This document shows positions 7,299 to 9,360 of a stretch of DNA of 60,564 nucleotides, piece after piece (the first letter of the stretch is position 1; every line of letters begins with the position of its first letter). Both the position numbers and the translations under genes were made by a program. The notes below the pieces were generated by a model. That model was not told the origin of the DNA. It made no database searches and saw only the letters and a list, made by a program, of their open reading frames with translations. The stretch is from a virus (Duplodnaviria; Caudoviricetes). The stretch is taken from positions 1 through 60,564 of the IMG/VR virus record IMGVR_UViG_3300035670_000224; one strand, written 5' to 3'.

Positions 7299-9360
7299 AC
7301 AAATCATAATCGGACCACGCTCCAAAAAGCAAGAAATGTACATCCAGAGCGAATGTGACGTAGTTGTGTTCGGTGGTGGAGCAGGCTAAAGCTGGAAAAA
7401 GTTTTCTGGGAGCAATGGATACATTGAAATACACAGAAGACCCTAAATTTAGAGCACTTGTAGTTAGAAGGTTAACCCCACAGATTCACGGTCCTGGGGG
7501 TATCTTTGAAACATTTGCAAACCTTCATAGAGAAATCTATGATACTAGATTAAAGGTCAAAAAACGTGACGGTATTTTAGAATACCCTAACGGTGGTACA
7601 ATTTCATTCCGCCACTGCCAATATGAGGACGACAAACACTCGTTCCAAGGTTGGCAGTTGAGTATGGCTTAACAGAAAGTTAATAGATGAGGCCCAACAG
7701 TCAATTTTGTATTAGCTGTTGTAAAATCCCTTGAATTGCTGGAATCCCCTCAGAGCCTTTAAGCTACAACAAAACTGGAAACGGTAAGTGTGAATGCGTG
7801 AAAATTAAAGGATTGGGCAATCAGCAGCTAAGACTCTGAAATGAGTAAAGTTCAACGACTATTCCGTAAGGAAGTAGTAGGAAAGTTCCTACGAAGCGGG
7901 GGAGTACGAAAGTACATGATATAGTCTATTCTAGTGCGAAAGTACTAGCAGCGAAAGCGGTTTAGTATTGACGATACTAAGCGAATAAAAGTGACACAAT
8001 CTCAGGTTATTTATATCATGTCTCGACTACGGTCTGAGGCAGCTATGAAACCTAAAATGCGAATGACGTGTAACCCAGCAGGTAAAGGGCATTGGTTAAC
8101 TAATTGGTTGGAGTGGTATCTACTTCCATCAGGTTTACCAGACCCCGATAAATGTGGTGTTGTAAGATACTTCACCATGAATGACAATGAAATGATATGG
8201 GGCGACACAGCTGAAGAAGTAAAAGAAAAAGTACAAGGGTGTTCTCCATTGAGTTTCACCTTTATTTCTGCAAACGTAAATTTATAGCGTCCTGTAAGAG
8301 AAATCTTACTTGAATAACCTTGTTAACTCAGGGGAAGCCTTACCATTAGGTTGAAGGTAATCCTGAGCTTGTGTTGTTAAATATACAACCCAAGTGCAAC
8401 GACTATCGAAACCGCTCATTATGAGATAAGGGAGTAGAGTAGCTTCAAGTGAAGCGAAACGCAAGGGGTCTGATTGGTGATAGCCAAAGACCGTGATATA
8501 GTCTGGTCTTAATGGAAACATTAAGCAGCTTGAATAAAGCGAGTAGGATATTAACGAATCCTGCTGAACAAACACGATACGACAACCCAACCTTGCTACA
8601 AAGGCAGCCACAATACGTTGCATGGTTAGAAGGTCAAGACCGAGAAACCAAAGAGGCTCTTCTTTACGGGAACTGGTATGTCACAAAACAGCAGGAAAAC
8701 TACTTTAAACGCGCTTGGTGCAGGTTAATTCAAGATGTACCACCTGTTATACAATCAGTAAGAGGTTTTGACTTAGCGGGTAGTATTAAAGACGAGGTAA
8801 ACAAAGACCCTGACTATACTGCCACAGCCTTGTTGCATAAAACAAAGGATGGTAGATATGTCATTGAACACGCTGACCACATCAGAGAGAGATTTCACAC
8901 TGTAGAAGAGTGGATATTTAAATTGAGCGAAACAGACGCAGATAATGTAGTCTACGTGATTCCTGTTGATGCTGGAGCAGCGGGTAAAGCCTACGCTTCT
9001 ACACTTCAAAAGAAACTCGCAGAAAGCGGAAGAGCTTGTAGATTATTTCCAATGTCTAACAAAAGCAAGCTAGTACGTTTTAGACCTTTTGCATCAGTAG
9101 CTCAGGCTGGTTATATTGATATACTTAATTCTCAGTGGAATACTTTTTACTTTGACGAGTTAGAAAAGTTCAGCGGAGATGGTAAAACACATGACGATAT
9201 GTTAGATGCTACAGTTGCTGGATTTTGGTTTTTAAATCAAGTCCGACAACTCCCCAGCTTCACCCTCCCCGACCTCTCCCAGTCAACCTCTTTTGGCTTT
9301 CAGTCAAGCGCACTCCCAACAGAATTAACCTCTCCTTTACAACAAGGTGAGTTTTTATAA
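7291..9360 (+). CDS. terL: terminase large subunit, split into 5 exons (7291-7387, 7392-7669, 7680-7701, 7992-8277, 8577-9360; 488 aa when joined)
   Basis: TTG start with AGGA RBS; joined product has Walker A FGGGAGSGKS, Walker B MALIDEAQQ, motif III MTCNP, SANVYDNP, nuclease RGFDLA/DYTA/HDDMLDA; exons sum to 1467 nt, in frame. Confidence 0.9.
7388..7391 (+). other. 4-nt micro-insert AAAG in terL Walker A (candidate micro-intron)
   Basis: GGC T|AAAG|CT GGA AAA AGT: unspliced gives in-frame TAA and a frame change; removal gives G-S-G-K-S. Confidence 0.65.
7670..7679 (+). other. 10-nt micro-insert TAACAGAAAG before terL Walker B (candidate micro-intron)
   Basis: ATG GCT|TAACAGAAAG|TTA ATA GAT GAG: removal gives M-A-L-I-D-E. 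Confidence 0.65.
7702..7991 (+). mobile_element. group I self-splicing intron A in terL (290 nt, no ORF)
   Basis: P1 CAACAGU/GCUGUUG with U-G at the splice site; P10 UUGUAUUA/UGACACAA; P AAUUGCUGGAA, Q AAUCAGCAG, R GUUCAACGACUA, S AUGAUAUAGUCU; terminal G; splicing restores DEAQQ-LTQSQ. Confidence 0.92.
8278..8576 (+). mobile_element. group I self-splicing intron B in terL (299 nt, no ORF)
   Basis: P1 ACGU/GCGU; P AACUCAGGGG, Q AAUCCUGAG, R GUGCAACGACUA, S GUGAUAUAGUCU; terminal G; splicing restores SANVYDNP. Confidence 0.9.

Follow-up and report, generated by a model that had tools for sequence, protein, structure and literature searches.

In the viral contig studied here (IMG/VR record IMGVR_UViG_3300035670_000224, a 60.6-kb stretch of 60,564 nucleotides (nt) that is called the window below), the gene of the large terminase subunit, terL (7291-9360, plus strand), is interrupted by two group I introns, named A and B, and by two inserts of a few nucleotides in its first exon, one within the Walker A motif (GGCU-AAAG-CUGG) and the other directly before the Walker B strand (GGCU-UAACAGAAAG-UUAAU). 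It is well supported that inserts of this kind, which are tiny, variable in length, disruptive of the reading frame and delimited by boundaries of the group I type, occupy two codons of an essential gene in the company of one ribozyme, that of intron A. Their removal at the level of RNA, by whatever agent, is likely on the comparison of sequences, and we put at about even the chance that the agent is the ribozyme of intron A, guided by a GGCC tetranucleotide that lies in the coding sequence of the terminase itself.

Recurrence and boundaries of the micro-inserts

The product of terL carries the Pfam domains Terminase_6N (PF03237) and Terminase_6C (PF17289, E 5.9e-20), and its Walker A and B motifs, AGSGKS and LIDEA, are regained when both inserts are conceptually excised. 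Profile searches of IMG/VR and of metagenome contigs yielded 38 close relatives, 13 distant matches (L028, L048-L059) being set aside, and inserts at the same two codon positions were found in 14 environmental relatives, which together with the window make 15 distinct alleles. The inserts measure 2, 4 or 5 nt at the first site (sequences in Table 1) and 6-11 nt at the second, where twelve different sequences occur. All 30 of them are preceded by GGCU and terminate in AG, i.e. they have a U at position -1 and a terminal G, and every site-2 insert is directly followed by UUA (15/15). Their 3' ends, AAG or UAG, resemble the 3' splice site of intron A itself, which reads AG-U in 12 of 14 alleles. 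With a size of 2-11 nt, which leaves no room for a P3-P9 core, the micro-inserts cannot be self-splicing group I introns, and this possibility was ruled out. Where the site-1 insert is only 2 nt long (L009, L010, L014, L022 and L042), the DNA forms a perfect 8-bp palindrome, GGCTAGCC, with a 6-bp site of the restriction type.

Excision between the U of GGCU and the base that follows the terminal AG restores FGGGAGSGKS at site 1 (VVVFGGGAG-SGKSF) and SMALIDEAQQLTQ at site 2 (QLSMA-LIDEAQQ-LTQSQ), in the same register as in uninterrupted homologues such as L012 and P0002. The codons joined at site 1, GGC UCU GGA AAA AGU, spell GSGKS, as in all uninterrupted homologues. An earlier reading of the window from its sequence alone (the sequence-only reading) had preferred AAAG to TAAA as the excised unit, and this preference is borne out, since all 23 insert-less relatives examined read AGSGKS at this place. 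The lengths of the inserts fall into classes 0, 1 and 2 modulo 3 at site 2 and into classes 1 and 2 at site 1, and all seven in-frame inserts of site 2 (6 or 9 nt) hold a stop codon; thus, no single frameshift explains the expression of terL. Programmed ribosomal frameshifting, i.e. a fixed +1 or -1 shift at a conserved slippery site, was rejected in view of these variable lengths and in-frame stops.

The exon 1b frame, which lies between the two breaks, is under strong purifying selection, with a median proportion of nonsynonymous differences (pN) of 0.13 versus a proportion of synonymous differences (pS) of 0.84 (91 pairs, 14 alleles). The inserts are not assembly errors, because a 16-kb contig from an independent study, 98% identical to the window, exhibits 27 substitutions and no gaps over 7250-8650 and has the same insert lengths. 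The remainder of the window contains long intact open reading frames (ORFs), and no second copy of terL was found in the record. A model in which separate proteins are made by restarting translation after each stop was rejected because the downstream frames have no consistent start codons and the P-loop would be severed from its β-strand.

None of the sequencing runs found to contain the locus was recorded as RNA. The contigs that were compared with the window over this locus came from four runs, and the absence of a spliced form among them is uninformative either way. One of them, a high-depth contig of 157 nt that spans 7551-7707, derives from a library with the label metatranscriptomic, which is probably DNA; it retains micro-insert 2 and ends 6 nt into intron A, and it would represent an unspliced or cleaved precursor if it is RNA, and it may be DNA. 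Of the other contigs over the locus two are DNA, and one has an adaptor-like loose end and an unspliced intron A. A search of viral contigs for alleles of a spliced or cDNA type with a 17-nt motif across the exon junction of intron A gave six matches, all in unrelated genes. The exon 1b profile found no relative in the collection of genome contigs, and the collection of cultured phages held no TerL more than 44% identical, the DNA matches there being confined to intron cores.

Linkage to intron A and distribution on the TerL tree

Both inserts and intron A are present together in all 15 alleles, and none of the three is present in the 23 insert-less relatives. A scan with a 23-mer from the core of intron A found it only in those insert-bearing terL alleles and in one unrelated gene. 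The carriers are not monophyletic on a tree of TerL built from 36 rows and 189 columns: the window falls together with the uninterrupted P0001 and P0002 (support 98/92), well-supported branches force a minimum of two changes, and nine are required on the best tree. Given this co-occurrence and the scattered distribution, the two inserts and intron A seem to have been gained or lost as one unit. P0001 and P0002 are the closest TerL relatives of the window (95% and 91% identical in exon 1b, respectively) and are uninterrupted, which points either to a recent joint gain of the two inserts and the two introns or to their precise joint loss. Within the set of insert-bearing alleles that were examined, intron B was found only in the window and in L029, and it is also present in the insert-less L023 and L040; hence, it is independent of the micro-inserts.

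Two further group I intron sites were observed in this part of the gene, one after Gly31 (in L018, L020, L021, L024, L033, L040, L044 and L045), 7 nt upstream of micro-insert 1, and one after Gly120 (in L024, L025, L040, L045 and L046), 18 nt upstream of micro-insert 2. They are filled only in alleles that lack the micro-inserts, and this exclusive occupancy suggests competition or immunity between the elements.

A conserved tetranucleotide of the coding exon as a candidate guide

The sequence-only reading proposed that complementarities to the spliced junctions act as external guides in place of the missing internal guide sequence, and one of its candidates was UGAGGCC (7688-7694), which was said to form a helix similar to P1 and P10 with a U-G pair at the 5' cut site. 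The hexanucleotide GAGGCC is invariant in 15/15 insert-bearing alleles, including the silent positions of the codons GAG GCC (14/14 aligned alleles). The same reading held that its candidates would be discredited if they were equally present in relatives lacking the inserts; GAGGCC is absent from all 16 insert-less alleles shown, which have GAA GCA, GAA GGU, GAG GCU, GAA AUU etc. instead. Infernal aligns the P1 helix of the Rfam model to AUGGCUUAA/UGAGGCCCA, with U7669 opposite G7691, so that the wobble pair falls exactly at the inferred 5' cut. RNAalifold, run independently on 14 alleles, also returned GGCU/GGCC with the U·G pair, stacked directly on the next hairpin, and the only conserved partners of GGCC across the alignment are the two GGCU sites.

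The GGCU side is constrained as well. Only four of the 93 third-codon positions of exon 1b are invariant, and they belong to ATG, to TGG and to the codon pair that makes up G-GCU; the first codon of this pair encodes Met, Ala or Gly, depending on the allele, yet its third base is always G. Of 57 degenerate codons whose amino acid is invariant, only a single one otherwise has a constant third base, namely the GCU that belongs to the motif. The GGC-U of site 1 does not vary either, in contrast to the third positions of the adjacent Gly and Ala codons. The invariant UUA behind the insert of site 2 is able to pair with (U/C)GA (7688-7690), just 5' of GGCC, by 2-3 bp in 14/14 alleles, in the position that P10 canonically occupies. 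The two pairings together amount to 6 bp in nine alleles and 7 bp in five (Watson-Crick and G·U pairs), i.e. they are kept throughout the alignment, and on these comparisons UGAGGCC is the only one of the five proposed candidates that fits the role of a guide.

Fold of intron A

Introns A and B both exceed the gathering score of the Rfam family RF00028 (60.0 and 60.5 bits, respectively, versus 50), and their boundaries were placed by protein homology to uninterrupted TerL; the exon junction of intron B, FISANV-YDNP, agrees with the homologues. In the RNAalifold consensus of 14 alleles, 39 of the 85 pairs of intron A exhibit changes on both sides, core helices included, and in P5a compensatory changes are found in six of the seven pairs (e.g. 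CCUGUAA/UUACAGG, CCUUUGA/UCAAAGG and UCGUUAG/CUAACGA). Protein homology demands that the main 5' splice site follow U7701, in the hairpin CAACAGU/GCUGUUG, and a divergent contig of a relative has compensatory changes in this P1 (7697A>G with 7719T>C, and 7700G>A with 7716C>T). The GGCU/GGCC pairing is predicted to be an additional P1-like helix, entirely exonic, immediately upstream of the canonical P1. Two introns that belong to the family of intron A and have near-identical P3-P8 cores were observed in L063 (1700-2150, capsid-like gene) and in L077, which is the cultured Flavobacterium phage FPSV-D18 (1480-2472, helicase-like gene); both carry an ORF of the GIY-YIG type, whereas intron A is ORF-less.

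A proposed mechanism of excision

We propose that the inserts are core-less micro-introns that would be removed from the terL pre-mRNA by the core of the adjacent intron A, into which the exonic GGCU/GGCC helix would dock. GGCC, which is part of the Walker B codons GAG GCC, would pair with the GGCU that precedes each insert, the U·G pair marking the 5' cut. Guanosine would then attack after the U of GGCU, the terminal G of the insert would enter the G-binding site as an omega-G, and the 5' exon would be joined to the base that follows this G, with the P10-like UUA/YGA pairing aligning the 3' flank at site 2. Site 1 would be served by the same GGCC via a 300-nt loop. Intron A would be spliced thereafter, or alternately, in the ordinary way through its own P1. 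Taken as a whole, this would be a natural helper-dependent micro-intron system, in which a neighbouring ribozyme excises inserts of 2-11 nt from an essential ATPase by means of a guide in the coding sequence, and the two inserts and intron A move or are lost as a unit; we rate the chance that this complete picture is right as somewhat short of even. As to the benefit, the inserts may shield the ATPase motifs from the homing endonucleases with which rival introns target sites 7 and 18 nt upstream, or, alternatively, they may make the production of TerL depend on the activity of the ribozyme.

Several observations weigh against this proposal, in which both the excision in RNA and its catalysis by intron A with the GGCC guide are what we infer from the sequences. 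The GGCU/GGCC helix comprises just 4 bp, and its invariance gives conservation but no support from covariation; moreover, the minimum-energy fold of the single sequence 7655-7730 does not form it (z-score -1.24). Site 1 is separated from GGCC by 300 nt, and a P10-like pairing is precluded there by the +1 C, which stands opposite A7690; the sequence GGCU UUA of site 2 is also present in four insert-less alleles. In FPSV-D18 the P1 helix of the intron directly abuts UUAAAA-P3 (J/P3), and this layout identifies CAACAGU/GCUGUUG as the canonical P1 of intron A; the docking of an extra upstream helix in the core of intron A is a hypothetical step. The invariance of GAGGCC could, furthermore, reflect a constraint at the DNA level, such as a homing-endonuclease site or co-conversion. 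Finally, each of the 15 site-1 inserts creates a stop codon right after GGC (U followed by AG, AA or GA), and nearly all site-2 inserts hold a stop, which resembles recoding sites and is not needed for splicing. These stops look selected rather than accidental, and one may speculate that they would keep unspliced RNA from being translated into a poisoned ATPase subunit.

Organization of the terL locus

The features of the locus are collected in Table 1. As regards the start of terL, the homologues P0001 and P0002 begin with MSEQ and MTEQ.

Table 1. Coordinates of the exons, inserts, introns and RNA elements of terL in the window
Feature	Position	Strand	Remarks
terL exon 1a	7291..7387	+	UUG start; ends GCA GGC U, the first half of Walker A; ORF list, tblastn versus uninterrupted L012 TerL
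GGCU, 5' flank of micro-insert 1	7384..7387	+	Invariant in 15/15 insert-bearing alleles
Micro-insert 1 (AAAG)	7388..7391	+	In relatives AG, AAAG, AAAAG, AAUAG or GAUAG
terL exon 1b (Terminase_6N)	7392..7669	+	Ends GGCU (7666-7669); out of the start-codon frame unless the insert is excised; Pfam
Micro-insert 2 (UAACAGAAAG)	7670..7679	+	In relatives 6-11 nt, ending AG, then UUA
Mini-exon 1c, 22 nt	7680..7701	+	LIDEAQQ (Walker B) and first base of the next Leu codon; matches SMALIDEAQQLTQSQ of uninterrupted L006, L012 and P0002
UGAGGCC, candidate exon-borne guide	7688..7694	+	GGCC (7691-7694) predicted to pair with GGCU, including U·G7691; Infernal, RNAalifold
Canonical P1 hairpin of intron A	7695..7721	+	CAACAGU (7695-7701)/GCUGUUG (7715-7721); U7701·G7715 at the main 5' splice site; RNAalifold
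Group I intron A, ORF-less ribozyme	7702..7991	+	5' splice site after U7701, omega-G 7991; Rfam RF00028, 60 bits, E 5.5e-14
Helix P5a of intron A	7756..7811	+	CCUUUAA (7756-7762)/UUAAAGG (7805-7811); RNAalifold, alignment columns 108-172 to 115-158
terL exon 2	7992..8277	+	ORF list, tblastn
Group I intron B	8278..8576	+	5' splice site after U8277, omega-G 8576; Rfam RF00028, 60.5 bits
terL exon 3 (Terminase_6C nuclease domain)	8577..9360	+	Pfam, tblastn

An ORF of 571 aa (5583-7298, plus strand) overlaps the start of terL. It contains many repeated Cys-pair motifs and a C-terminal T5orf172/MUG113 domain, which is related to GIY-YIG, and its homologues lie directly upstream of terL in at least 13 relatives, insert-bearing and insert-less alike. 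The protein may be a free-standing homing endonuclease; as a factor specific to the cassette of inserts and intron it was rejected, because insert-less alleles adjoin it too.

Alternative explanations

The sequence-only reading envisaged, besides UGAGGCC, a joint action of four other guides across the spliced junctions, and all of its complementarities do exist in the window: UCCAGAGC at 7343-7350 and CAGAGCCU at 7751-7758 for junction 1, and AUUAAAG at 7549-7555 and 7804-7810 for junction 2. In 2000 dinucleotide shuffles of 7291-7991, 8-mers complementary to junction 1 are indeed unusual (two observed, shuffle mean 0.04, P ~0.006), whereas the 7-mers of junction 2 are at chance level (two observed, shuffle mean 0.45, P ~0.09). 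When the guides were followed in the 13 other fully aligned insert-bearing alleles (14 with the window), 7343-7350 was found to retain at most 2 bp with the allele's own junction in 13/13 relatives, and the 98%-identical strain has two substitutions within it (A7346G and G7347C) and keeps the insert; 7549-7555 is not conserved and reaches no more than 5 bp in any relative. On this comparison the two are coincidences specific to the window. The element 7804-7810 coincides with the 3' strand of P5a and covaries with its partner in the intron, not with junction 2. The comparisons thus contradict three of the four elements, and we find the wider scheme of several concerted guides barely credible. 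The notion of an external guide replacing the missing internal one fits the data for UGAGGCC and fails for 7343, 7549, 7751 and 7804, which are dismissed because they are unconserved or explained by P5a. The hairpin UUAAC/GUUAA, which the same reading drew in the insert of site 2, can be formed in the window (7669-7673/7679-7683) and recurs in only about four of the 15 alleles.

The remaining element, 7751-7758, would be a minor rival guide, for site 1 only, and it belongs to a broader class of explanations in which the inserts are removed from RNA by other means than GGCC: by the UAGAGCC loop (7751-7757, at least at site 1), by pairing of GGCU with GGCU, by the excised intron acting in trans, or by a protein nuclease and ligase reading GGCU...AG. 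Besides the shuffle result, this class can draw on the AGAGCC core, which is kept in 11/14 alleles and gives 5-8 bp across junction 1 in 12/14, on the distance and the missing P10 that separate site 1 from GGCC, and on the self-complementarity that GGCU has once G·U pairs are admitted. However, the base that AGAGCC places opposite the -1 U is A and not G, and the CC of AGAGCC takes part in the P5a pairing, where compensatory changes are seen. Variation of the +2 exon base (CU, CC or CA) is not mirrored in AGAGCC, and L011, L034 and L036 have an altered version of it and retain their inserts. As regards a protein enzyme, no candidate is linked to the cassette, the T5orf172-like ORF upstream being adjacent to insert-less alleles as well. 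We therefore regard removal from RNA without GGCC as unlikely.

Among the explanations that do not invoke RNA processing, the main rival to excision is translational bypassing, in which the mRNA keeps the inserts and the ribosome passes over them, by short hops or by a frameshift with readthrough, with a take-off stop and a hairpin as in gene 60 of phage T4. Bypassing in that gene and in the mitochondrial 'byps' elements requires matched take-off and landing codons and spans gaps of 27-55 nt. The terL inserts resemble these systems in being short non-coding gaps in an essential ORF, in the stop codons described above, with which the gap opens, and in a local hairpin that can enclose site 2, but they differ in the lack of a matched landing codon: take-off would occur at GGC or GCU, whereas AAG or UAG (or an overlap with the take-off codon) precedes the resumed frame. 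Moreover, site 1 splits a conserved Ser codon (U-CN), the halves of which a hop cannot rejoin. The gap lengths vary among close relatives (2-5 and 6-11 nt), and each allele would need its own recoding event, and the decoding of any insert codons would make the P-loop or the Walker B strand longer than in all homologues. Bypassing also leaves the strict linkage to intron A and the invariance of GAGGCC unexplained, and we give it little credence. There is a small chance that GGCU and GAGGCC are conserved at the level of DNA, for recognition by a homing endonuclease, for immunity or by co-conversion, the inserts being scars or shields at endonuclease targets and their removal a separate matter. 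This would agree with the location of the inserts 7 and 18 nt downstream of the Gly31 and Gly120 intron sites that are filled in relatives, with the GIY-YIG-related ORF directly upstream of terL, and with the scattering of the cassette on the TerL tree, as expected of a mobile unit. It leaves unexplained, however, how frame-breaking inserts are tolerated in an essential gene, and their U and G boundaries match the chemistry of group I introns exactly. In addition, third positions vary in the 3' exon flank of intron A, which has thus escaped homogenisation, and simple co-conversion is unlikely to account for everything. That terL is a dead gene or a product of assembly errors might be suggested by the broken frames and the in-frame stops, but it is scarcely tenable, as pN falls far short of pS beyond the first break, the 15 alleles come from many samples, the independent 16-kb contig has identical insert lengths, and the window is otherwise rich in long intact ORFs and offers no second terL.

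Whichever mechanism applies, the persistence of frame-breaking inserts of variable length at two fixed codons of an essential gene under strong purifying selection demands a new one. If excision by intron A with the exonic guide is correct, group I ribozymes do naturally what has so far only been engineered, cutting arbitrary short pieces out of a messenger RNA by means of a four-base guide that lies outside the ribozyme, and a length of 2 nt could suffice for an intron in bacteria and phages. Programs for gene calling that now split such genes or discard them as frameshifted would then need to be changed, the system would offer a compact natural scaffold for tools of RNA repair, and the micro-inserts would possibly represent a defence of conserved motifs against homing endonucleases.

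Relationship to known systems

No description of natural group I-dependent inserts of a few nucleotides was found in the literature searched, with supplements and subscription journals lying outside it, and a prior description is possible. The closest reactions known from that literature are artificial, and between them they offer a precedent for every element of the proposed mechanism. In trans excision-splicing, engineered group I ribozymes derived from Pneumocystis, Tetrahymena and Candida excise as little as 1 nt by means of P1, P10 and a terminal G (PMC2532722), and in the 'spliceozyme' an engineered group I ribozyme removes an intron in trans in E. coli (PMC4094466). The likeness to the process proposed for the terL inserts is that a group I core removes a short segment devoid of a core, the 5' flank ends with U in P1, the excised piece ends with G, and P10 aligns the 3' flank. 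The difference is that those are laboratory constructs with the guide in the ribozyme, whereas in terL the segment is natural, belongs to the same pre-mRNA as the ribozyme, and has its putative guide in a coding exon. The ribozyme of the Azoarcus group I intron works with an externally supplied guide, in vitro and with a 3-nt guide on fragments (PMC2709566); it illustrates that the guide that forms P1 need not belong to the ribozyme's own 5' end, but that guide is no part of a coding exon and the reaction excises no segment.

Natural relatives can be found among reduced or crowded introns. The degenerate group I introns of fungal rRNA genes, 56-81 nt long, keep P1, P10, the terminal G and P7 and are reported to self-splice (PMC3160393). 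They are the smallest natural relatives in the literature searched, and the loss of most of the group I core, with P1, P10 and the terminal G retained, is what brings them close to the micro-inserts. They differ in the retention of P7, whereas the terL inserts, at 2-11 nt, possess no core helix and are always found beside a full intron. In Bastillevirinae, several group I introns interrupt terL and other phage genes, the exons that separate them being very small, and exon skipping occurs (PMC11878797). The terL gene described here shares with them the partition by several group I introns with tiny internal exons; in the passages seen of that work, every intervening sequence is a full ribozyme and inserts of a few nucleotides are not described. 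If our reading is right, the micro-inserts of terL would thus stand as the natural counterpart of the trans excision-splicing and spliceozyme reactions.

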